This document shows positions 1,269-15,167 of a DNA stretch of 16,550 bases, piece after piece. The notes under the pieces are model-generated. The model did no database searches and had not been told where the DNA came from. It saw nothing but the letters and a program-made list of their open reading frames with translations. This stretch comes from Methanocaldococcus jannaschii DSM 2661 (lineage in GTDB: Archaea; AGJL01; Methanococci; Methanococcales; Methanocaldococcaceae). Each line of letters begins with the position of its first letter. The first letter of the stretch is position 1. The DNA is taken from the NCBI RefSeq assembly GCF_000091665.1, contig NC_001733.1, positions 1 to 16,550 on the forward strand. The letters are read 5' to 3'. The translations under genes and the position numbers were made by a program.

Positions 1269-4200
1269 TTAATTTTTATTCCGTATCTTACGCACCAATT
1301 CATTTGTATTTATGGTATTTAGTAATTTAATAATATTTTGGCAGTATTTTAAGCAGTCTATGGATTTTTCGTCATACTTTTTTATGATGCCATTAATTTC
1401 ATTGCAGATTTCGTTTAATTCCTCTTTTGGTATTAAGTCTTGGAAGTAAATCCCATAAACTAATGAATCTATTATATTTTCTAAAAATATTCTGTCATTT
1501 TCATTTAATTTATCGTTTAATTCGAACCTCAATTTACTTAACTGTGTTAAAGCGTTTATTATGTTTTTATTTTTGGGGATTACTATAGGTAACTCTCTTA
1601 ATTCTTCTAAGGTAGTCTGCCTAAAATCATCTTTTAATGCTATTGCCGACTTTCCAATGTATATATAAGATATTAACTCACTATTTAGTATTCCTAATAA
1701 ATAGAAGTAATTAATAGGAGTATCTGGCTTTAAAACAAACACATACAAATCCTTTTTTACAACTCCTTCAATATTTCCATAAGATGCCATAATTCTATCT
1801 TGTCTATTAACGATTCTCCGTATAAAGATTTTCTCGGGAGACATAAATAGATTAATAAGCTTTTCGTTGTTTTTATGTTTTGAGAAATCAACATAATTTT
1901 TTAATTTTAATTTAGTTTCATACCTATACACATTACCTTCTAAATATGGCAAATAATATTCGTTTTCTTTTTTATCTGAAAATTTATATTTTGAAGCTAA
2001 AATTCCTATTGTAGATTCTGTTAAATCTTCCAAGTAAGTTAGTGATTCTCTACAATTTTGTTTAATTTTATCTAATATTATGTAGATTTCGGGACTTTTT
2101 GGGAATATTCGACACTTTGGGTCATTTAATATTTTTGAATATTCTATGAAAAGGTCATTTTTAAACTCAAATGAGATTTTTTTAGTTTTTTTAGGGAATG
2201 CATATATCAAAACCAAATCTTCTGATTTTGGAGGTTTTTTATGCAGTATTATTATACAATTATCAACATACGCTCCTGAAAATACATCAAAAGGTAGATA
2301 GATTAATTTTTTCAGACACATTTTTGTAAATAACTCTTTTCTAAGATTTGAATATCTCACACCCGTTCCAAAACTTGATGGGATTATAAATCCTAAATAC
2401 CCCTCATTTTTCAATAATTTACTACTATGCACTATAAATGTTACAAAAATGTCAAATTCAGGAGTATCTCTACGTTTCATAATTTCTTTTTCAGTAGGAG
2501 ATAGCAAATTCCCATAAGGTGGATTTCCAATAATTACATCAAAACCTTCCTCTTTAATAATCCATCCGAAGTCAATCTTCCAATGGAAGGGTTTTAATTT
2601 TTCAAATTCCTCAACACGTGGTCTATTCTTTTTACTTTTTTTACCATTATTCTTTTTGTTATTTCCATTTTGGTAAATCTCAGCGAAATATGCTGGAGTT
2701 ACACTCTCATATATTGAATCTCTAATTTCATCTAATAATTCTTTTAACAGATTGGCTTTAAGTCCGTGGCTTGTTCTATATACTTCATAAAGGAGATGAT
2801 ACGCTTCCACATAATTGTCTAATACATATCCATCTCTTTTTTCAAGCAATTCTTTAGCTTTTTTCAGTTTTTTTCTCTCTTCAGAATTGTGAGCGTTGAT
2901 AATTAAACCTTCAAGAACACACATTATACGCACATTATCGCATAGGTAGGAGATGGAAAGCTGTTTTAAATTTTCATCAATCCATCCAACTAAACTGTTA
3001 CCACATCTTACATTATACTCAATATTTGGCAGTAAAACTTCTCCTCTTTTTAAAGCCTCAACGTCTAAATTCTCAATAAGAGCAAGCCACAACCTAAGTT
3101 TTGCTATTTCAACAGCAATATCATCAATATCAACACCATAAAGATTGTTTAGTATAATACCTAACTTTTCTTTGTAAATGTCCATCTCTTCTCTAAGTAA
3201 ATAATAAATCCTTTTCTTAATTTGGAGCAATTCCTTTAATGCAGATATTAAGAAATGACCACTTCCAACTGCGGGGTCTAAAATTCTTATTTTATCCAAT
3301 TCATCAAGAAAAGCTCTTAAAATATGTTTATTTTCAGCTATTTTACTATCTTCATTAAGAATTTCATCTAATGTTGAGAAATTAATGTCATTTATTTTCC
3401 AATTTTTAATAATCTCTTTAAACCTCTCTACAACAATCGGCTCTATTGTATTTTTGGCAATATAGCTTGTAATCTCATCTGGAGTATAATAAGCACCCAG
3501 TCCTTTCTGCCCTTTTTCTGCCAAAATATTAATTAACTTTTCATAAACATACCCAAGAATATCTGGATTTAATTCAACTTCTTCTGAACCTTCAGATGTA
3601 GATAGAGTGAATTTATACCTTTCTAAAAAATTAATAACCTCTCCAATAATTTCATTATCTTTTATAGTAAATGATAGTTCGTTAGGAACATTATTACTCC
3701 TGAATAATCCACCATTTAAGTAAGGGATGTCTTTATAGTAAGGATTAGTTCTAATATTTTCTTTTCTTTCATCTTCTGGAGTATTAAGCACTTCATAGAA
3801 TAATGGTTTAAGATAAGCATCATAATAATTTATTAAAACGTTAGATTTTTTGTAATCTTCATAAGTTCTTCTAAGCAAATCTCTTGGGACTATTCCCTTG
3901 TCCTCAAGGAATTTTATAAATATTAACCTGTTCATTAACAATACTGCAAATTTTTTCTTGTCCAATTCTGATGTATTGGGTGGAGCTTCAATACAATTGT
4001 ATAAGCATTTTTTAGTGCCTTTATCTTTTTCTGAACTACTTTTATCTTTTTTCTTAACATCCTTAACATCTTCAAATCCAAAAACAAGTTTTACGAACTC
4101 TTTATAGAATTCATTAGTAATTTCTTCTTTTTTATGTTTAATATTCTTTGTAGCAACTTCAATATATTCTTCAATATACTCCTTTGAAAAACAATAATAA

Positions 4201-5295: not shown

Positions 5296-5334
5296 AACCT
5301 CACCTCTATTATGTAGAATATTTTAATATAGTGT

Positions 5335-5526
5335 TTAAAATTTATTCTTCAACCTCACTATTTTAACCCTACCTTTCTTAACAATCTCAACTCTTCCCTC
5401 TTTTTTAAGTTCATTTAATGCAGTATAAAACTTTCTCGTATCAACTTCAAGTATTTCAATTAATTTCCGTAATGCAATAATCTTTTTCAGATTGTAAGAG
5501 TTCCAACAATCTATTTTTAACATCAT
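5335..5526 (-). CDS. Winged-helix DNA-binding fragment (recognition helix plus wing); likely the 3' part of a frameshifted gene
   Basis: 63-aa ORF. LIEILEVDTRKFYTALNELKKEGRVEIVKKGRVKIV looks like helix-3 plus the wing of a wHTH. It overlaps the 135-aa ORF by 71 nt in another frame. Confidence 0.5.
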   Translation of the reverse strand: MMLKIDCWNSYNLKKIIALRKLIEILEVDTRKFYTALNELKKEGRVEIVKKGRVKIVRLKNKF

Positions 5527-5863
5527 CTACTGTATTAGAAGATTCTTTCAAATTATTTCCATGTGAAATGTTAATTATTAAACCATTAACCAAAGTAGAT
5601 AATGTATTTAGTTGATTAACAATGTCATTCAATTCTTTCTTGCTAACATAATCATTATTGTTAGAGTTAATAACATTATTAAACTCTAATTGAATTCTTT
5701 CAATTTCTTTCTTAATGAAATTTAGTTCGTTTTCAAAATTATCTAATTTTTTATTCAATTTTTCAAAATTTTCAAAGATTTCTTTTCTTTCACCCTCTAA
5801 CTCTTCAATTTTTTCAATATAGTTATCAATGCCTAACAGCTTAATAATAGCCTTTTTAAGCAT
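5456..5863 (-). CDS. Coiled-coil protein ending in the first helices of a wHTH (5' part of the split regulator gene)
   Basis: 135-aa ORF with ATG at 5863. Heptad-like E/K/L/N-rich region. The C-terminus NRLLELLQSEKDYCITEIN* stops in the middle of a wHTH-like motif. Confidence 0.7.
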   Translation of the reverse strand: MLKKAIIKLLGIDNYIEKIEELEGERKEIFENFEKLNKKLDNFENELNFIKKEIERIQLEFNNVINSNNNDYVSKKELNDIVNQLNTLSTLVNGLIINISHGNNLKESSNTVDDVKNRLLELLQSEKDYCITEIN

Positions 5864-5920: not shown

Positions 5921-6103
5921 TAAATATAGTAAATAAAATTTACCTTATTTTTAATGTGTCCCTCAATTAATTTATTATACAAAATGACTGTCCATATTGA
6001 TAAAATCGGCAATATACGCTCTATAAGTGGTATGCACTTTGAAAATTCTTAACTTATCCTGAACTTTTAGGCAACCAATAATAAATAATATGCAATCTCC
6101 TTT

Positions 6104-6158
6104 TTAATTGATTAATTAATCAATTAAGCAATTAATTGAGTATCAATTGATTAATTGC
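6104..6158. repeat. Palindrome cluster: perfect 24-bp palindrome TTAATTGATTAATTAATCAATTAA (6104-6127), then GCAATTAA...TCAATTGA...TTAATTGC (6128-6158)
   Basis: I checked the reverse complement base by base for 6104-6127. There are 8-bp inverted arms at 6128-6135 / 6151-6158 and an internal 8-bp palindrome TCAATTGA at 6143-6150. The 12-mer AATTGATTAATT occurs at 6106 and 6146. Confidence 0.85.
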
Positions 6159-7005: not shown

Positions 7006-7428
7006 TTACTCCTCTAACGGAATTAAAGCAACAATATGCCCTTTTTGGATTATAATCCTCTCAACTTCCTTATCATCAACCTTAGCGTCCAAAACCATAA
7101 TATTAAACCTATCCTTTGCCTTGACAGTTCCCTCAACAATCATACCATTATCTAAGTAAATTTTACACTTTTTCTTATGAGCAAATAATAGCATATAATC
7201 CTTATAATCGTCATCCTTCTTCTTAGGTTGCTTTTTCATCGGTTTTCTTTGTGGTTTATTCTGCTTATTCAAATTCTCAACCTCCTTAGCTATTATATCA
7301 TAATGCTTACTTTTAATGTGCTTTTTAATTGCCTTTACATCTGCATTAGTGTAATTACAGTATGGACATTTATAGAAAAATCCCTCTTTCTGTATTTCCA
7401 ATTTTTCAATATAATCATCTATGTTCAT
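7006..7428 (-). CDS. C2H2 zinc-finger plus basic linker plus Sm/LSm-like domain protein
   Basis: CPYC-x12-H-x4-H (classic C2H2). Lys-rich linker KQNKPQRKPMKKQPKKKDDD. The C-terminal KIYLDNGMIVEGTVKAKDRFNIMVLDA...IIIQKGHIVALIP fits the Sm1/Sm2 pattern. ATGA start/stop overlap with the primase gene; SD GGTGA. Confidence 0.8.
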   Translation of the reverse strand: MNIDDYIEKLEIQKEGFFYKCPYCNYTNADVKAIKKHIKSKHYDIIAKEVENLNKQNKPQRKPMKKQPKKKDDDYKDYMLLFAHKKKCKIYLDNGMIVEGTVKAKDRFNIMVLDAKVDDKEVERIIIQKGHIVALIPLEE

Positions 7429-8750
7429 TTTTTCACCAAATAGTTATTTTTATCCAACTCATAATACTTTTTATAAATCTCTATTTGCGTTTTTGCCTCT
7501 GGTATGTTCTCTTTTAGCCACTTAATAGAGCATACTTTACCATTCCTATCATAGAGATACCTAACTTCATAATCTATATGTTTGATGTATTTGTTGCCAT
7601 ACTTGGAAGCCCAACGGTTCAATAACTTTATAGTTTTATCTCTTCCATAGCCTAACAGCTTACATAATGAAGTTAAATAATAACAGCCTCTCATTTTGCC
7701 ATCTTCCCAATTGGAATTGATTAACTCATTAAGGTAGCTCTCCAACTTTACCTTATTTAATACAACTTCCTTATCTCCTATGGTTGTTTTGATGTATTCC
7801 CTCTTACTATGCTCTACCTTAGGTTTTGCCTTCTTATTGGTGTTTATTTCCAAATCTATCTTAATATCGTTATTCACTTTCTTAGTTGCTTGATAATATC
7901 TTAAAGCATCATCCACAAAGTCCGTTAAATCCCCTCTTATCTCTCCAAAGTTTTCATAGTATTTTGTTAGCTTCCTTATGAAGTATGGCTTTACATTCTG
8001 CAAATATATCGGTTTAAACTTCTCCACTTTGTTAATTGGAAACGGTATGCTTATCGGTGTCTTTCCCTCAATGTCTGCATAGTATAAGCTAAATGGTGCT
8101 GTTACAGTCATGTTTTCCTTATAGATTGATAAGTCAATACCCGTATCTCCTTCCTTGCCAACAAAATCTAACAACTTCCTTAGCTTAAAGTTTAGAAAGT
8201 TTGTTAATATGGTGCTTCCTTCAACATAGCCCTTATTTAGTATCTCATTAGGCAAATATCTGGCATTAATCCAAATATGAAAGCCCTTACTCCCACTAAA
8301 CTTTATGTGGATGTCCTTAACTCCATAATCTTTAAAAATCTCTCTTACTTCCTTAGCTATCTCCTTAGATTTCTTAAAGTTGCCTTTAAAGTCAATATCT
8401 ATAACCCAATCCCAATAATTGTAGTCGATAGCTGGATACTCCAACTCATATCTTGGACTCTCAAAGTAGTATGGAGAGCAGTAAATACTCCTAAGGTTCT
8501 CTATAATCCAATCCTTAAAGTTGCCTCTATAATCCCATAAATCAATATGCCTTAAATATGGCTTCTCCCCCTTTGGGATGTTGTTATAGTTCCAATACTT
8601 TGGATGTCTCCAATTGATTTTTCTATCTCTATCCAAATCCAACCTATGGCAACTTAATAACCTATCTAAACAAAAATAATATAAATATCTGGAAGTTAGT
8701 TTATAGTAGGTAAGCCTATCCATAGCTACCACCATTATAGTGGTCTCCAT
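7425..8750 (-). CDS. Archaeo-eukaryotic primase (AEP) / primase-polymerase with a C-terminal PriCT-like helical domain
   Basis: Motif I WVIDIDF (DxD). Motif [13 protein letters not shown] (sGxGxH). Motif III region GIDLSIY...TAPFSLY. An alternative start at the ATG at 8723 (M10) is preceded by GGTGGT and would remove the overlap with the helicase gene. Confidence 0.9.
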
Positions 8751-11700
8751 TGGTCGGATTCTGGATTATCCACATCTCCATTTTTCCACAGCTCTTTTAA
8801 AATCCCCCGTGCTGTATCTTCCGATATGTTGAAGTTTTCAGCAATTTCAACCGTAGTGTAGATTTTTGGATTTTGTAGCATGTAGTTTAAAATCTCTCTT
8901 TTTAGTTGGGATAACTTCCTACTTTCCTCTATAAGTTTGTTAATCTCTTCTAACTCTTCATCCTTTTGTTGTGTTTCTTTTATCTCTTCTCCAACCAATT
9001 TAAATATCTCCTTAACCTTATCTGGTGCTTTAATTCTTAACAAAACCCCTAAGATTGTCTTAAACCATATTTTTAATGCATCCCTAACATCCTCTAAATC
9101 CACATACTCCTTAAACTTAAGTTTAGCATAAGCTTTAGCCATATACTCAATTTGATTAAATAATCTATCGGAATATCCTTTAAATAGTCCGTAATCTCTC
9201 AATAAATCCCTTAACTTCTCCTCTACCTCCCAAAGTGTCTTTAATGCATCTTCCTTAAACTCAATATCCTTATTTTTAATGTAGCTAATGAATAAAGCAC
9301 ACTCGTAAGCTTCCAAATTCTTTTGTTTTATGAAGTTATTGTCTTCTCTCAATCTCTTAACTTTGTAGGTGTGTAGTTTAATCTCCTTCCAATCCTCGTT
9401 GGTGTATGGCTTTAATAGATAGATTAATGGAATTCTATCTGTCATTCCCCTCAAATTCTTCAAAGTAAAATCCAATATTTTTGACAATAACCATTCTGAT
9501 GCATTTAACTGGGGGTTAGCTCCCAATATATTATTAACTATCTTTTTAGCCCTATCTTCTGCCTCATTTCTATCATAGTCATGTTGTTTTAGTAACTTTT
9601 TAGCGAAGTAATTTATCATAGCTTCTTTAAACTCTTCAAATCCCTTTAAGTGGTAAATTTCCCAAAGCTCCATTAAGTCAATATCCTTAATGTTCCCTAC
9701 TCCAATCCATGGGCTTACCCCAATCATTGGGATGTTATAACCCTCTCTTTCTCTCTTCCAAATACCTGAAGTTTTACCACTTTTTAATAAGTCTAAGTCG
9801 TTGCCTACTCTTAAAATAAAGTCCATCATCTCTTCAATAAATATCGGTCTATTGTGGTTCATTGGGATTATTCCTTTTTTATAGAATTTTATGTTATCTC
9901 TGGAGATAACTAAACCTATTAAGTTCTCTATGTTAGGCATATCTACTCTTATCATGTCCTCAGTAGTGTTGTGGAGTTTTGCCAATGGTTCTATTGTTAA
10001 ACTCTTCCCTTGTCCATAGCTTCCAATGAACAAACAATCAATAGTTTCAGGCTTTAAGTGTCCATCCCTATTTTTATCCCAATATATATGGGATGATGCC
10101 AGTATCTCCAATGTTATTAAAGTGTCTATCGTTGGATTTTTCCCTTCTTTGTCCAATATTGCCTTCACTTCGTAAAATACCCTATCTTTAATATAATCTA
10201 AGGCATTACTATAACCAGCATTCTTAACCTTCCTAACAAAGGCATCATAATTGAAATTTATGGTCTTTTGTGGATTGATACTTAAGCCCTCTATGTAATA
10301 CTCTCCTTTATGGTTTGTTTTCAAAATTCCTACAATTTCAACATCCCTTAGGTTGTTAATCTCTGGTGTGTATGGAAGATAAACCCTATAAACTTCATCC
10401 GTTTCTTTTAATTGGATTATGGCTATCGTTAAATCCCTTTCCAACTTTATTGGTTCTCCATCTTCATCTTTGAATAGGGATTCTGAATATTTTATGTCTC
10501 TGCCACACTCTGGACACTTAATTTTATAATCTTGGCTGTTTTCCACTGGCTCATACAACCTTATAACTTCACAATTACATCCCTTGTTATTGCCGTTCTT
10601 ATCCAAATCAATACATACATAACGTCTCAAAATTGGTCTGCTTTTCCTATGGTGTATTATTCCCGCAATATCTCCCCTAAATACACACAATTTATTCCTA
10701 AACTCTCCCCAATCCTTAGCTTTTGTCATTATGGTCCTACTTCTTAGTGTCTCTAAGCCAATTATGTTAATCTCTAAAGGCTTAAATTGGAAGTATTTTT
10801 CATAATAAACTTTATAAATCATCTCTATGGCTTCATACGGTTCATTTAAGAGTAAGCTCCTAAAGTAAGCCCCTACAATTCTCTCTTTGCCCTTTAACCT
10901 ATCAACTTCGTTAATGTCAAATTCAAAGCCCTCTGGTGTTAATCTCTCTTCTATGAATTTTTTAAGTGATTTTTTCAAATCTTCCATAAATTCGCTTTTA
11001 GCTTCTGCCTCTTGGAATGCTTTTTTAGGTAAATACTCATCTAAGATGTCTTTAATGTCTTCATAGAATTTGTAAGTTAGATAAATGTATTTTCTATCGT
11101 AATCCTCTGGATTTTTCCTTATGTCAATCCATTCTAATTGTTTGTAAATCTTTAGGTGTTGCTTTAATGTTCCTTCTCCAATTTTCAACTGCTCTATGGC
11201 TTTATTCATAAATTCGTCAAATCTCATACCTTCAAAGGTTAGGATTGTGAATATTTTAGCAGTTTTTTTACAATCATCGTTTTTATAACTCTTTTTTAAT
11301 GTGTTGGCTCTCTCGCCGATTTTGTTGCATAGGTCTTCAATCATACTATTATCTTGTATATTATGCAGTAATTGGTGAAGCATAGTGAAGTCGTTATTTT
11401 GTTGGTGAAGTGCAGTGAATTCTTCACCACATTGGTGAAGCATAGTGAAGTCGTTATTTTGTTGGTGAAGTGCAGTGAATTCTTCACCAACAATTTCACC
11501 AATTTTTATGTCTCTATTTTGTTGGTGAAGCATTTCACCAGCTTTCACCAATTTTAATACGACTTCCTTAGGGTCGTGTATCTCCCAGAAGCTCCAACCT
11601 AAAATTGACGTAATTGCATCCTCCAATCTATATAGTTTGTCGGTTGGCAATTCTGCCCCTAACTCCCATAAACCATATTTTAATAATAGTTGCCTCTCTT

Positions 11701-11929
11701 TCAGAGGTAGCTTGTTTAATGAAAATAGCCATATATTTCCTAAGATTTCAGTATTGTTTTTGTTATGCTCGTCTAATTCTTTGATAGTATTAGGGTCATA
11801 TCTAATGTTCAGTAATTTTATGGCAACCTCTAAAACATCCTCTGGATATTGATTAATTTCATTAATTGTATATTCCAATACATTGTTGTTCTGTATGTTA
11901 TTTATACTACCATTTACATATTTATCCAT
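8735..11929 (-). CDS. Divergent MCM-like AAA+ helicase with an N-terminal extension (LHQ decapeptide repeats plus a wHTH-like segment), OB/zinc-ribbon, ATPase core and C-terminal winged helix
   Basis: Zn ribbon CNCEV...CPECG after VFRGDIAGI. Walker A GSYGQGKS. Walker B-like [15 protein letters not shown] (compare AAANP). Arg-finger-like [11 protein letters not shown] (compare SRFDLIF). C-terminal [51 protein letters not shown] before the ATG at 11929. Confidence 0.7.
11371..11490. repeat. Intragenic tandem duplication, 2 x 60 bp, 59/60 identical
   Basis: 11371-11430 and 11431-11490 differ only at the last base (c/a). They encode the repeated [21 protein letters not shown] degenerate third register appears at 11513-11530 (ATTTTGTTGGTGAAG again exactly 60 bp later). 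Confidence 0.95.
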
Positions 11930-12635
11930 GCCTAACCACCTCTGTTGTTGTTAGGTTTTTCGGAGTTTTGAGGGTATGGAGATACCTTTTATAGGTTCTC
12001 CCTATCTTTTCCAGTATATTTAATAAAGCTATTTTTGAAGTTTTAACTTTATAAACATTAAATGATGTTCTTTTATGTAGCATTATCAACTTGAAAGCAT
12101 TATTTTCAAATTCGTGATATAGAAATCTTTCAAAAGTTGATATTGCAAATACTTTTATGGAACATATACAATTATCCACATTTATTCTATTGTATCCTAA
12201 AATCAGTTTAGTTAAATATTCCAATTTATATAATTTATGTGTTGAAGCATCTTGATATTTAACCAATGAACCACAACTTAAAAATAACATCTCATCTTCC
12301 AAAGGTAGATTACACAATGAAAATAGCCAATGGGATAAACTTAATTTTATATAATACAACTTACTATAATAGTTAGTTAGTAACTTTATAGTGCCTTTCA
12401 ATACATTGTCAGAATAGCATTTAATCCATTTAACCAAATATTCCAAATCTATGATAATCAAAAAATATATATAATTGTTTATGACACACATATAATCACC
12501 TCCTTTGCAGTGGTTTTCCAAGTATTTTCCCAATTTGGGGAAGGAAGGGGGCTTAACACTATTTTTTTTAATTTCAAAGTATATAAACCTTACGAAATTA
12601 TCGGAATTATCTGTTCCATATTCAGGTAATGGCAT
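11922..12635 (-). CDS. Stand-alone paralog of the N-terminal domain of the MCM-like protein (237 aa from the ATG at 12635; 189 aa if started at the ATG at 12491)
   Basis: Matches by eye: [17 protein letters not shown] vs [17 protein letters not shown]; [16 protein letters not shown] vs [16 protein letters not shown]; [13 protein letters not shown] vs [13 protein letters not shown]; KVFAISTFE vs [17 protein letters not shown] start/stop overlap with the helicase gene. The internal ATG at 12491 is preceded by a near-perfect SD AAGGAGGTGAT. Confidence 0.6.
12580..12587 (-). promoter_or_regulatory. Perfect TATA box (TTTATATA on the minus strand), candidate promoter of the replication operon
   Basis: The plus strand reads TATATAAA at 12580-12587, 89 nt upstream of the SD-preceded ATG at 12491. 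It lies inside the N-terminal extension of the 237-aa ORF. Confidence 0.45.
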
Positions 12636-12890
12636 AAAAGCTTACTGGATTATATTTAACTATTAAAATTTATTAATTTTATTGAGAATAATGCGGAATT
12701 TTTACGCAGAGGAATTTTTTATTATCCAAACTATCGATTTAGATAGTTCTGATAGATTTAAACTATTGAAGTTATTTTATGTAATATTTTCTAAAATTTA
12801 CGGACATTTTCCGAGATTGCTACCACGATATTGTATAATTAAACAAACACCACTTAGGTGAAAAATATACCAGTAAAGAATACATTCATC

Positions 12891-12920
12891 TCGGAAAATA
12901 TCCGTAACGGAAAATTTTCA
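12891..12920 (+). repeat. Double-dyad repeat copy 1: TCGGAAAATATCCGTAACGGAAAATTTTCA
   Basis: Read directly. Matches copy 4 without gaps at 27 of 30 positions. Confidence 0.9.
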
Positions 12921-13094
12921 ATGCACAAACTTTTAATTATCTGTAAATATAAAAATTGTCAATAATTATTTTATATTTACCAGTGAAATTTGAAAACGTG
13001 AAATAATATCTTACATGTCATTATACTCGGAATTTTGCAAGTCCTTATATTTGAAATATCGGTTACACACACTATTGTAAAATACTCGTACTTA

Positions 13095-13127
13095 TCGGAA
13101 ATTTTCCGTGCGGACATTTTTCGAAGG
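13095..13127 (+). repeat. Double-dyad repeat copy 2 (diverged): TCGGAAATTTTCCGTGCGGACATTTTTCGAAGG
   Basis: Ungapped comparison with copy 3 gives 25/33 identities. The first half, CGGAAATTTTCCG, is a 6+1+6 palindrome. Confidence 0.75.
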
Positions 13128-13177
13128 AAGACATAATTTTAAGCCATAACAACATAAAAGAGAATGGATTACAAATA

Positions 13178-14014
13178 CTACTTCGGAAAATATCCGCACG
13201 GAAAATTTTCGCAGTCAGTAGTATATACATCTTCCATAAGTTTTGTAGGTATGTTATATTCATGTTCATCAACGTTTTTTTCTTTCATCATGAGATAATT
13301 TACAATTGCTAAAATCAATATTAATATTATAAATCCGAGAATTATCGCCTTCCACCTAATTTTTCCAGATTCTAATGTTTCACATAATACGCCTAAACCA
13401 AATATAAAACTAAAAGCACCAGTAATCGAATAAATAACTGATTTTGGAGGAATATTTTCAAGATTCTCTATAAACAACTGCTCAGAACGTGATTTCAGAA
13501 CTCTATCTATTATTTCTCTGTAGCACTTATTATCGTTTTCTTTGGTTTTCGAATCATTTATATTTTCTTCAATTTTTAAGTTTTGATTATTATTTATAAT
13601 TTGAATATCATTTTCCGTTTTTTTAACGTTTAACGAGTTTTCTATATTTTCGTTAATTTTAAACGTCTTAAATAGCTGTAAAGCAACATCAATTAATTTT
13701 TTTCCAGATAATTTCATAAGATTATTGTATTCATCCAATATTTCTAAAGTATGAGTTTTATTTTTCTTAGAATATAAGTGCTTTAGGTTTAAAATTTTAT
13801 TTTGTATGATTATTTTGTATGTTTTTTCATTAATTTTCATTACATGTCCGATTTTTTCAAATATTGATAATAACTTTTCAAAACCTTTTACTCCAACGTT
13901 AAAATTTCCAGTTTTAGAAGATAACGAATATCTCTTATTTTTACTATCATAAGTTGCCGATATTTCTAAGTAACTAATATTTACATAAAAATTACAGATA
14001 ATTTCGTCGGGCAT
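13178..14014 (-). CDS. Hypothetical protein with a soluble N-terminal region and two C-terminal transmembrane helices
   Basis: ORF track 13178..14038, whose start is TTG. I prefer ATG at 14014 (MPDEIICNF...), preceded by AAGGTG. TM segments VIYSITGAFSFIFGLGVLC and AIILGFIILILILAIVNYLMM. Confidence 0.7.
   Translation of the reverse strand: MPDEIICNFYVNISYLEISATYDSKNKRYSLSSKTGNFNVGVKGFEKLLSIFEKIGHVMKINEKTYKIIIQNKILNLKHLYSKKNKTHTLEILDEYNNLMKLSGKKLIDVALQLFKTFKINENIENSLNVKKTENDIQIINNNQNLKIEENINDSKTKENDNKCYREIIDRVLKSRSEQLFIENLENIPPKSVIYSITGAFSFIFGLGVLCETLESGKIRWKAIILGFIILILILAIVNYLMMKEKNVDEHEYNIPTKLMEDVYTTDCENFPCGYFPK
13183..13222 (+). repeat. Double-dyad repeat copy 3: TCGGAAAATATCCGCACGGAAAATTTTCGCAGTCAGTAGT
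   Basis: Overlaps the last 13 codons of the 286-aa ORF (...TTDCENFPCGYFPK*). Similarity to copy 4 extends through AGTAGT. Confidence 0.9.
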
Positions 14015-14094
14015 ATTCGACACCTTTTTAAAATTCAACTGTAAATTGACGGTTTGGTAGTATTATATTATTGTGATTACAAAGAATATACCTT

Positions 14095-14136
14095 TCGGAA
14101 AATATCCGCAACGGAAAATTTCCGAAGTTAGTAGTG
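14095..14136 (+). repeat. Double-dyad repeat copy 4: TCGGAAAATATCCGCAACGGAAAATTTCCGAAGTTAGTAGTG
   Basis: Lies 57-98 bp upstream (minus-strand sense) of the 286-aa ORF. The second half, CGGAAAATTTCCG, is a 6+1+6 palindrome. Confidence 0.9.
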
Positions 14137-14346
14137 AGACATTGAACCTATATGTTTTAAGAGTTAGAACATGCCCAAAACATGCTTGTATATTATATAT
14201 GTAATGAGTAAATTATGATTAGTATATTTTTATCCAAAAAATAGAGTTCAAAATTAGCGTTGCTAAATCCCATAACTTATGTGGCTATAAAGTAATAAGG
14301 TTATGAAATTATGAAATTCCTAACTTCCATAAACTTCTGGAAATTC

Positions 14347-14365
14347 ACAACTTTCACAAAGTTGT
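14347..14365. promoter_or_regulatory. 19-bp palindrome ACAACTTT-CAC-AAAGTTGT upstream of the yfbU-like gene
   Basis: Perfect 8-bp arms with a 3-bp centre, read directly. About 160 bp upstream of the ATG at 14527. Confidence 0.6.
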
Positions 14366-14406
14366 AAATGTTATAAACTTCAGTAGTGTCCAAAAATTAT
14401 TAACCT

Positions 14407-14436
14407 AAGTTAGACTTTGGGCTGAAAGTCCAACTT
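14407..14436. repeat. Inverted repeat AAGTTaGACTTT-gggctg-AAAGTCcAACTT
   Basis: Arms of 5+6 bp interrupted by one a/c mismatch, with a 6-nt loop. It uses the same AACTT/AAGTT core as 14347-14365 and 15168-15191. Confidence 0.55.
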
Positions 14437-14471
14437 CTATTAACTTTGAGACCATTTAATATGTGCATATT

Positions 14472-14526: not shown

Positions 14527-15033
14527 ATGTTATCTAAAATCGAACGACTTATATTGGCAAACCAATACAAAATTTTGAAAATTTTGGAAAATACTTCAGA
14601 ATATGATGAGATAATTAAGATTTTAGAGGAAGGGTATGAAATATTTTATGATGAAATTTTAGGACATATTTTTGATGAACTTCCAGAATCTGAAGGACAA
14701 TTTGTATTAGATATTCTCTCTTTTTACGACATTGTAGTTGAACCCTACAAACAAAAGAACCCTAATGACCATGAAATAATAAATCATCCATATTCGTATT
14801 TTAAAGGTTTTGATGGCAATAGCGAAACAAAATATATGGCGTTTGTAAGATTTCTTATAGAAGACCAGAAAAAATTTTCATTCGTAGCAAAGTATGCAAA
14901 GAAAACTGATAATTTTAATAGTCATTTCCCAATGTTGGATAAATATAGAAAAATGGTAGAGTTATGGGAATCGAAATACAATAAAAAGTATGACTTAAAA
15001 AGGGAGGAAATTCTTGACATCCTAAATGCATAA
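14527..15033 (+). CDS. yfbU: YfbU family (UPF0304) protein
   Basis: From memory of E. coli YfbU: [12 protein letters not shown] vs [32 protein letters not shown] vs [39 protein letters not shown] vs NAQTPMWEKYQRMLNVWHA; the C-termini end ILNA vs IINA. The homology begins at M28 of the track ORF (ATG 14527, strong SD). The track start at 14446 is TTG. Confidence 0.85.
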   Translation: [168 protein letters not shown]

Positions 15034-15070
15034 TTTTATTTATCTAAATATATTTTTAGATTTTTATTTT
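15034..15070 (+). terminator. Oligo-T tract cluster, candidate archaeal intrinsic terminator after yfbU
   Basis: T4 at 15034-15037, T5 at 15053-15057, T5 at 15061-15065 and T4 at 15067-15070, directly after the TAA at 15031-15033. Confidence 0.4.
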
Positions 15071-15167
15071 ATTATAAAATTCAAAAAATATCTTATCGTA
15101 TTATAGAAAGATTTGTAATAAACTCATTATAATAGTGAAATCTTACTTCGAAAATTTCTAACCTTGG

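Follow-up and report, generated by a model that had tools for sequence, protein, structure and literature searches.

A repeated array of predicted protein-binding sites accompanies an orphan membrane-protein gene on the small plasmid of Methanocaldococcus jannaschii

Introduction

Methanocaldococcus jannaschii DSM 2661 carries a small extrachromosomal element, called ECE2 in one study (PMC3543421) and NC_001733 in another (PMC2699501), in and around whose largest non-coding region lies a family of CG-containing repeats built from a 13-bp dyad with the palindromic consensus CGGAAA-N-TTTCCG. What are these repeats for, and to which part of the plasmid do they belong? They are found upstream of the replication operon, which on the minus strand encodes a 237-aa protein, a 1064-aa MCM-like protein with a C-terminal helix-turn-helix, a 441-aa primase-polymerase and a 140-aa zinc-finger/Hfq-like (ZnF-Hfq) protein, and they also surround the gene of an orphan membrane protein, an open reading frame (ORF) of 286 aa. 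An earlier note, made from the letters of this DNA, took them as the best candidate for the origin or copy-control locus, or for an operator set shared by the replication operon and the 286-aa gene. The window analyzed here is the whole of this stretch, a complete small plasmid of ~16.5 kb (16,550 bp) with which many resequencing contigs are collinear.

Methanococcales lack a recognisable Orc1/Cdc6, and how replication is initiated there is an old open question (PMC3914693). Pfam scans of all plasmid ORFs of at least 100 aa found neither Orc1/Cdc6 nor Rep, as the earlier note had stated. We report here that the repeats travel with a cassette containing the membrane-protein gene and not with the replication genes, and we weigh what this means for their function.

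Results

Paired 13-bp dyads form a non-random array

Searching the plasmid with the dyad consensus CGGAAAWTWTYCG and allowing at most two mismatches, we obtained 21 strand matches, compared with 2.33 ± 1.75 in shuffled sequences, none of which (0 of 200) reached 21. All matches but one fall within 12694–14124; the outlier at 5457 hinges on an extra G that is absent from resequenced contigs of the same plasmid. The seven CGGAAA hexamers of the plasmid all lie inside the repeats, and a 30-mer of the repeat occurs twice where no occurrence is expected. The CG richness claimed for the repeats in this AT-rich plasmid was confirmed as well, with 31 CG dinucleotides per kb in 12636–13177 versus 10.8 per kb plasmid-wide.

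Most dyads form adjacent pairs, 15–16 bp centre to centre, and altogether they are dispersed over 1.4 kb (Table 1). Unit 4 lies upstream of the membrane-protein gene, unit 3 at its 3′ end and the inverted unit 2 54 bp further on, and unit 1 and the single dyads are spread over the non-coding DNA next to these. The four double units that the earlier note had placed at 12891, 13095, 13183 and 14095 were recovered, and the palindrome is indeed exact in copies 2 and 4 (dyads at 13096 and 14112). Other parts of that description had to be amended. Units 1, 3 and 4 share one orientation as claimed, but unit 2 is inverted (alignment scores of 16–24 inverted versus 12–16 direct) and 90% complementary to unit 3. 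Among the three supposed half-site relics at 12694, 12801 and 13028, only the last is a half-site, the other two being complete single dyads. The placement in the largest non-coding region holds for units 1 and 2 and the relics, but unit 3 encodes ENFPCGYFPK, the C-terminal end of the 286-aa ORF, and unit 4 lies upstream of that ORF in the next intergenic region.

Units 2–4 run on for ~10 bp past their second dyad, as (A)AGTYAGTAG, and units 3 and 4 are alike in their flanks. Units 2 and 3 are inverted around about 54 bp of ordinary composition that is not unusually AT-rich. Together with this spacer they make up a 116-bp imperfect palindrome, with a fold z-score of −7.7 as single-stranded DNA and a weaker one (−3.3) in the metagenome variant L113 described below. 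The paired arrangement of exact or near-exact 13-bp palindromes would suit two dimers of a DNA-binding protein, in agreement with the earlier suggestion.

Table 1 Features of the dyad array, its cassette and related loci. Coordinates without a contig name refer to the window.
Feature	Coordinates	Strand	Details
Degenerate single dyad CGGAATTTTTACG	12694–12706		2 mismatches to the consensus
Complete single dyad CGGACATTTTCCG	12801–12813		1 mismatch
Double-dyad unit 1, TCGGAAAATATCCG-TAA-CGGAAAATTTTCA	12891–12920	+	
Half-site relic CGGAATTTTGCAAG	13028–13041		left cassette boundary just past the relic, ~13040
Double-dyad unit 2	13096–13123	−	inverted relative to units 1, 3 and 4
Spacer between units 2 and 3	13124–13182		
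Orphan membrane-protein gene	13178–14038	−	286 aa from TTG 14038; 278 aa from ATG 14014
Double-dyad unit 3	13183–13211	+	covers the final ~10 codons of the 286-aa ORF
Double-dyad unit 4	14095–14124	+	81–110 bp upstream of ATG 14014
Conserved non-coding portion of the cassette	14125–14434		right cassette boundary 14434
Split gene in the variant	L178 3248–4095		also in L113 and L179–L183
Copies of the ~48-bp element	L001 787–834; L002 937–979; L003 ~113–160; L113 ~2080–2127		
GC-rich segment in relatives	L163 1660–1860; L003 3706–3747; L004 3780–3820; L005 338–378; L001 6391–6450		

Other explanations of the repeats themselves were rejected. Rfam holds no family for them, the sole match being a sub-threshold one to a microRNA precursor (23 bits versus a gathering score of 140) that arises because of the unit 2/3 palindrome, and the individual stems of 4–6 bp are too short for an RNA element, so that nothing marks the repeats as a structured RNA. 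As coding repeats they fail because, although units fall within small ORFs (FGKYPQRKISE, FGKYPHGKFSQ), unit 1 is in another frame and these ORFs are not conserved; the reading frame across the units is not the same between copies. None of the units was called as an intrinsic terminator. Avoidance of restriction sites, with the plasmid's MmeI-like enzyme in mind, was dismissed since CGGAAA occurs 0 times outside the repeats where ~0.6 is expected and TTTCCG twice where ~1.8 is expected, these expectations being rough hand estimates from base composition.

The array lies in a cassette-like segment and is conserved in a metagenome variant

A scan of a metagenome collection for the double dyad yielded 117 loci, among which only L069 and L113 were true relatives. 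A later look-up added L178–L183, and the variant cassette was found in seven contigs from at least five samples. Plasmid positions 13090–14434 are collinear with L113, L069 and L178 at 88% identity, and weaker similarity extends back to ~13040. The flanks of the variant are different, with a DUF234 ATPase on one side and the last 11 codons of a ZnF-Hfq gene followed by a DUF5418 membrane-protein gene on the other; therefore, the plasmid segment 7041–13039 is absent at this position. Because 13040–14434 is thus found in another gene context, it behaves as a cassette, within a plasmid family that is clearly mosaic. This ~1.4-kb cassette (~13040–14434) comprises a hairpin element, conserved non-coding DNA, unit 4, the membrane-protein gene, unit 3 and unit 2.

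The dyads are better conserved than the non-coding DNA around them. Between the plasmid and L113, 75 of 78 dyad columns (96%) are identical, versus 414 of 494 (84%) other non-coding columns (Fisher p = 0.0013), and within 13040–13215 the respective counts are 49 of 52 and 87 of 124 (p = 2e-4). Unit 2 is 100% conserved in the variant, and its flanks are ~60–75% identical. Unit 4 is invariant and lies inside a block of ~100 bp, 100% conserved, directly upstream of the gene. Within unit 3 the second dyad is invariant, the first has three changes, and the C-terminus of the protein differs there, hence it is the DNA sites, not the peptide, that are conserved. These comparisons support the view that the dyads are under purifying selection.

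The non-coding part of the cassette showed further features. Positions 14255–14386 are nearly 100% identical in the variant, although the adjacent coding sequence is at ~88–90%; this block, in which the word WAACTTC recurs and which contains a perfect 8-bp hairpin, ACAACTTT-CAC-AAAGTTGT, gave no Rfam match. The RNA fold of 14250–14440 has a z-score of −4.2 on the minus strand versus −1.8 on the plus strand. Next to it, a non-coding element of ~48 bp, TGTCCRAAAATTWTTAACC..GTTRGACTTTGGGCTGAAAGTCCAAC (14387–14434, with a hairpin at 14409–14434), marks the right cassette boundary and is found conserved throughout the plasmid family, dyad-less members included. As a candidate cis element of the whole family, it might serve, for example, as a terminator, an origin core or a site of recombination.

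The dyads co-occur with the membrane-protein gene and not with the replication genes

To follow the replication genes, we compared the contigs that encode nine homologues of the MCM-like protein (53–97% identity). One of them, L006, is the same plasmid and 100% identical across the repeat region. Seven loci with a total of 51.9 kb (L001–L005, L176 and L177), whose MCM-like genes are 53–85% and whose primase genes are 82–91% identical, contain no dyad at all, even when the relaxed motif CRGAAANTTTCYG was searched with at most one mismatch. L001 is a complete circle of 12.7 kb with an exact terminal overlap of 220 bp. Absence from homologous plasmids was one of the observations that the earlier note had named as speaking against its own proposal, and for these seven replication-gene relatives, including the circle L001, this is what was found.

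Another plasmid of the family, L163, gave the opposite picture. The N-terminus of its MCM-like protein is 47% identical, and it encodes P0011, a homologue of the orphan membrane protein. It carries variant dyads, CGGAAA-N-TTTCTG, in two clusters, CGGAAAATTTCTG-CAAAAATTTTCTG and CGGAAATTTTCTG-T-CGGAAATATTCTG-CAGAATTTTTTCA, located 32–170 bp after the P0011 stop codon. These dyads lie between convergent genes, as the gene that follows is a ZnF-Hfq homologue (its 3′ end) encoded on the opposite strand, and a ribbon-helix-helix gene is located upstream of the P0011 gene. Since dyads are present at 47% MCM identity and absent at 53–85%, their distribution does not follow the replication proteins. 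Dyads occur in every locus that encodes the 278/286-aa protein family and in none of the loci without this gene; they travel with the membrane-protein gene cassette, not with the replication genes.

Searches beyond these relatives gave little. In a genome collection that did not return the plasmid itself, the double dyad had 38 unrelated single matches (in bacteria and one Methanoregula metagenome-assembled genome) and none in Methanococcales, a result that does not extend to the host chromosome. A viral collection gave one unrelated match, protein-based locus searches of viral contigs found nothing, the PLSDB plasmid collection had no match, and a literature search found no paper on these repeats.

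The dyad-less relatives have other repeats of their own in non-coding regions. In L001, 8-bp tandem repeats of the CATGRTKC type lie at 5315–5413 upstream of its replication operon, and repeats of 25–110 bp at 1671–3920 stand on both sides of a gene for a 153-aa protein with a coiled coil and a PadR-like winged helix-turn-helix (wHTH), a layout that parallels that of the dyads in the M. jannaschii plasmid. Just upstream of the MCM-like gene, several relatives contain a GC-rich, strongly self-complementary segment with inverted repeats of the GGTAGGGAGA / TCTCCCTACC type, which in L163 is ~200 bp long and has no Rfam match. In the M. jannaschii plasmid, the 237-aa gene fills this position.

The membrane protein has a basic N-terminal domain

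The start codon of the membrane-protein gene is more likely ATG 14014, which is located behind an AGGTG ribosome-binding site and gives a product of 278 aa. This protein consists of a basic N-terminal domain (residues 1–120), a disordered linker and two hydrophobic helices. The family is very small, with three members among 5.8 billion clusters, and an exhaustive HMMER search of 1.84 billion representatives brought up no true member beyond the two relatives, its only other match being a spurious TPR protein. P0011, the sole distant member, is 40% identical overall and 57% over residues 1–120. The isoelectric point of the N-terminal domain is 9.6 in the plasmid protein and 9.1 in P0011, and 11 lysines are invariant.

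From only two sequences, AlphaFold2 produced a confident model of the N-terminal domain (residues 1–122, encoded by 13649–14014; predicted local distance difference test score of 93.7) with the topology β3-α followed by β4-α. The full-length model has a low-confidence linker followed by two helices at 191–246, which match hydrophobic segments common to both homologues. Judged from this model, the domain may represent an undescribed fold.

Proposed function of the array

The data support an array of predicted sites for a dimeric, sequence-specific DNA-binding protein that belongs to the cassette of the 278-aa gene. From these observations we infer protein binding, the identity of the binder and the effect of binding as follows. 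Tentatively, we favor the reading that the dyads are the recognition sites of the cassette's own N-terminal domain and serve autoregulation and plasmid maintenance. A dimer would bind the 13-bp CGGAAA-N-TTTCCG palindromes, mostly as adjacent pairs; the binder would most likely be the product of the cassette, contacting DNA by its basic N-terminal domain, and its two transmembrane helices would hold the bound protein at the membrane. Unit 4, beside the promoter region of the gene, would mediate autoregulation, and the downstream units would act in cis as a maintenance site, either for membrane tethering or plasmid segregation or as a site that organizes replication.

Known systems offer partial parallels. 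Plasmid centromeres such as parS/parC or the AspA site of pNOB8 likewise consist of clustered sites beside the gene of the presumed binder, and phage phi29 has in p16.7 a membrane-anchored DNA-binding protein, which illustrates how a membrane anchor could localize a replicon. Unlike partition systems, however, the plasmid encodes no NTPase (nucleoside triphosphatase) of the ParA, ParM or TubZ type, DNA binding by the 278-aa protein is putative, and this protein has no sequence or fold similarity to centromere binders or to p16.7.

Several findings weigh against this assignment of the binder. The co-occurrence of dyads and gene is based on two independent lineages only, and the contigs L163, L113 and L178 are short, so another linked gene could encode the binder. 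One candidate is a 175-aa coiled-coil+wHTH protein of the plasmid, which has homologues on contigs of at most 2.6 kb. Foldseek gave no significant match for the N-terminal domain in PDB and BFVD, and we did not assign it to the PUR-repeat fold, given E-values of 0.04–0.24 and poor superposition; the 278-aa protein had no sequence match in Pfam or PDB either. Among the plasmid ORFs, the Pfam scans detected no partition NTPase (ParA, ParM or TubZ-type). Furthermore, the gene is split in the variant cassette, in all seven contigs, into a 140-aa ORF for the N-terminal domain and a 127-aa membrane ORF. Such a split would uncouple DNA binding from the membrane anchor and speaks against the two parts having to be physically joined. 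It also means that the N-terminal domain can stand alone.

We consider it unlikely, but worth stating, that the N-terminal domain represents a new kind of sequence-specific DNA-binding domain that forms, together with the membrane anchor, a self-contained and exchangeable NTPase-free module for tethering or origin recognition. As a tether, such a module would fix the plasmid to the membrane for inheritance; as an origin-recognition factor, it would recruit the MCM-like helicase and the primase.

Transcriptional operators as an alternative

A somewhat doubtful alternative is that the dyads are plain transcriptional operators of a winged-helix or similar regulator and have no role in replication or segregation. 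The regulator would be the 175-aa coiled-coil+wHTH protein, which is encoded at 5335–5863 and intact in resequenced contigs, or a host factor, and its targets would be the 286-aa gene and perhaps non-coding transcripts. Among archaeal dimeric regulators, pairs of 13-bp palindromes that have GC ends around an A/T centre are a typical kind of site. Operators of Lrp-type and ribbon-helix-helix proteins are palindromes of 13–15 bp with an A/T-rich centre, in which adjacent sites suit cooperative dimers, and the exact or near-exact dyads described here resemble them. As in archaeal tandem operators, one unit lies beside a promoter region: unit 4 is immediately next to the conserved block that lies close to the promoter of the 286-aa gene, and in the variant no position differs from unit 4 to the start codon. 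The promoter of this gene probably lies just downstream of unit 4, a location that suits regulation of the membrane-protein gene.

For the remaining sites, operator function is harder to defend. Unlike in archaeal tandem operators, the dyads of L163 are all located between convergent genes, where there is no promoter to regulate, and unit 3 falls on the 3′ end of an ORF. A distance of more than 300 bp separates units 1 and 2 from the likely replication-operon promoter, and the spacing of the units to TATA-like boxes is not constant. The sole good TATA box upstream of unit 4 (14194–14203) is deleted in the variant. The TATA consensus of M. jannaschii is TWTATATA, with a spacing of 23 ± 2 nt to the transcriptional start site (PMC2699501). 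We counted 151 TWTATATA-like boxes in the plasmid and rejected promoter geometry as a guide, because such boxes are everywhere in AT-rich DNA and their distance to the units is not fixed. No fixed position relative to a B recognition element, TATA box or transcriptional start site was found, only unit 4 being promoter-proximal.

The replication operon and its 237-aa ORF more likely start at ATG 12491. This codon (Met49 of the 237-aa ORF) is preceded by GGAGGTGAT and a perfect TTTATATA TATA box at 12587–12580, one resequenced contig calls a 189-aa product for this ORF, and with this start the non-coding region would extend to 12492–13177. No dyad lies over the likely promoter of the operon, the nearest being the one at 12694, ~107 bp upstream of the TATA box. 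The idea of an operator shared with the replication operon is therefore left without support; what survives of it is that unit 4 may be an operator of the 286-aa gene.

Origin or copy-control iterons as an alternative

We regard it as unlikely that the MCM-like/primase-polymerase replicon uses the dyads as iterons, for its origin or its copy control, to which a plasmid replication protein binds. This protein could be, for example, the 237-aa paralogue or the MCM-like protein with its C-terminal winged helix, and units 2 and 3 would flank an unwinding site. Such a role would fit the location of units 1–3 upstream of the replication operon, in or at the largest non-coding region, the 116-bp imperfect palindrome of units 2 and 3, and the lack of an encoded Orc1/Cdc6 or Rep; the variant also keeps units 2–4 although 7041–13039 is missing there. 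In bacterial theta plasmids, iteron clusters flank the rep gene, as in P1 (incC/incA), F (ori2/incC) and pSC101. The present array recalls them in having repeated sites on both sides of one plasmid gene, a mixture of direct and inverted copies, and sites in the main non-coding region beside the replication genes.

The differences are more telling. Iterons are tandem direct repeats of 17–22 bp in helical phase, whereas here we find paired 13-bp palindromes at 15–16 bp, and the flanked gene encodes an orphan membrane protein and no recognisable Rep. Nor do the sites co-vary with the replication proteins, given the seven loci without dyads at 53–85% and L163 with dyads at 47% identity. No marked easily melted stretch adjoins the units, nor is an adjacent AT-rich unwinding element evident: in a nearest-neighbour stability scan the minimum is at 15030–15089, and 12931–12990, between units 1 and 2, ranks eighth, so that DNA stability was rejected as an origin pointer for being uninformative near the units. 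GC skew was rejected too, as it is dominated by gene orientation. The non-coding sequence that is shared family-wide is a different element, at 14387–14434.

Two archaeal types of origin can be compared. In archaeal oriC with origin recognition boxes (ORB and mini-ORB) bound by Orc1/Cdc6 (compare PMC4010727), inverted elements flank a short spacer, as units 2 and 3 do. Unlike in these origins, there is no adjacent or other Orc1/Cdc6 gene here, the motif sequence is unrelated, and the spacer is not unusually AT-rich. For pTN2- and pEXT9a-like plasmids, origins were predicted in repeat-rich intergenic regions that precede a helicase-primase operon (PMC3543421). The M. jannaschii plasmid has a large repeat-rich intergenic region before its helicase and primase operon as well, and a ZnF-Hfq gene in common with them. 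However, GC skew and repeats are the sole basis on which these origins were predicted, and the repeats studied here belong to a separate cassette that is absent from closer replication-gene relatives.

Hence, both the origin role of the repeats and their link to the MCM/primase operon are weakened. The earlier designation as the best origin or copy-control candidate is no longer the best-supported one, as the repeats are absent from replication-gene relatives and track the 286-aa gene. They fall short of what defines an iteron origin, an Orc1/Cdc6-ORB origin or a canonical partition locus, and they match an operator only in part.

Finally, rather than a working binding array, the dyads could be left over from a mobile cassette or be its recombination sites (ends that were duplicated, or crossovers where modules were joined), as the position of unit 2 ~55 bp from the left cassette boundary, the mosaic plasmid family and the shared flanks of units 3 and 4, as expected of a duplication, might suggest; we consider this improbable, because the dyads are better conserved than their flanks, the variant motif persists at 40% protein identity, no integrase or transposase was found in the plasmid, there are no terminal inverted repeats with target duplications, and the right boundary at 14434 has a hairpin and no dyad.

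Significance for plasmid maintenance

Read as a plasmid-borne repeated array of predicted protein-binding sites, the feature narrows the candidate cis-acting maintenance DNA of a small plasmid to a 1.4-kb cassette in which the sites are precisely defined and open to mutation and one protein is the candidate binder. The family-wide conserved element at 14387–14434 provides a second candidate. Position upstream of a replication operon alone does not make such repeats the origin. If the orphan protein does bind the dyads, this would reveal a new DNA-binding fold and a membrane-linked mechanism of plasmid maintenance in archaea, and a role in origin recognition would matter because the lineage has no recognisable Orc1/Cdc6. 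We know of no replicating shuttle vector for M. jannaschii. The sites and the protein are concrete reagents for work on plasmid maintenance and vectors in this model archaeon without Orc1/Cdc6.

Other features of the plasmid

Besides the replication operon and the 286-aa ORF of the orphan membrane protein, the gene content according to Pfam comprises a 276-aa protein without Pfam match, an MmeI/Eco57I-type restriction-modification enzyme, a DUF365 protein, the coiled-coil+wHTH protein, a 144-aa membrane protein, YfbU and a DUF553 transglutaminase-like membrane protein. The Pfam scans detected no integrase and no transposase among the plasmid ORFs.

The extra G mentioned above lies at ~5468 of the reference plasmid, compared with resequenced contigs of the same plasmid (L166), and is probably a reference sequencing error or a strain difference. 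Without it, the ORFs 5456–5863 and 5335–5526 fuse to encode the 175-aa protein, which has its coiled coil at the N-terminus and its winged helix at the C-terminus. Upstream of this gene, in a non-coding region of 519 bp, an AT-rich palindrome of 66 bp (6083–6148) contains many TTAATTAA / CAATTAA words.

The N-terminal part of the MCM-like gene contains in-frame tandem repeats of 30/60 bp at 11371–11530. Counterparts exist in L002 (4541–4701), L005 (874–947) and L163 (995–1150), with a different repeat sequence in each relative, and the replication protein seems to have here a repeat domain that evolves rapidly.

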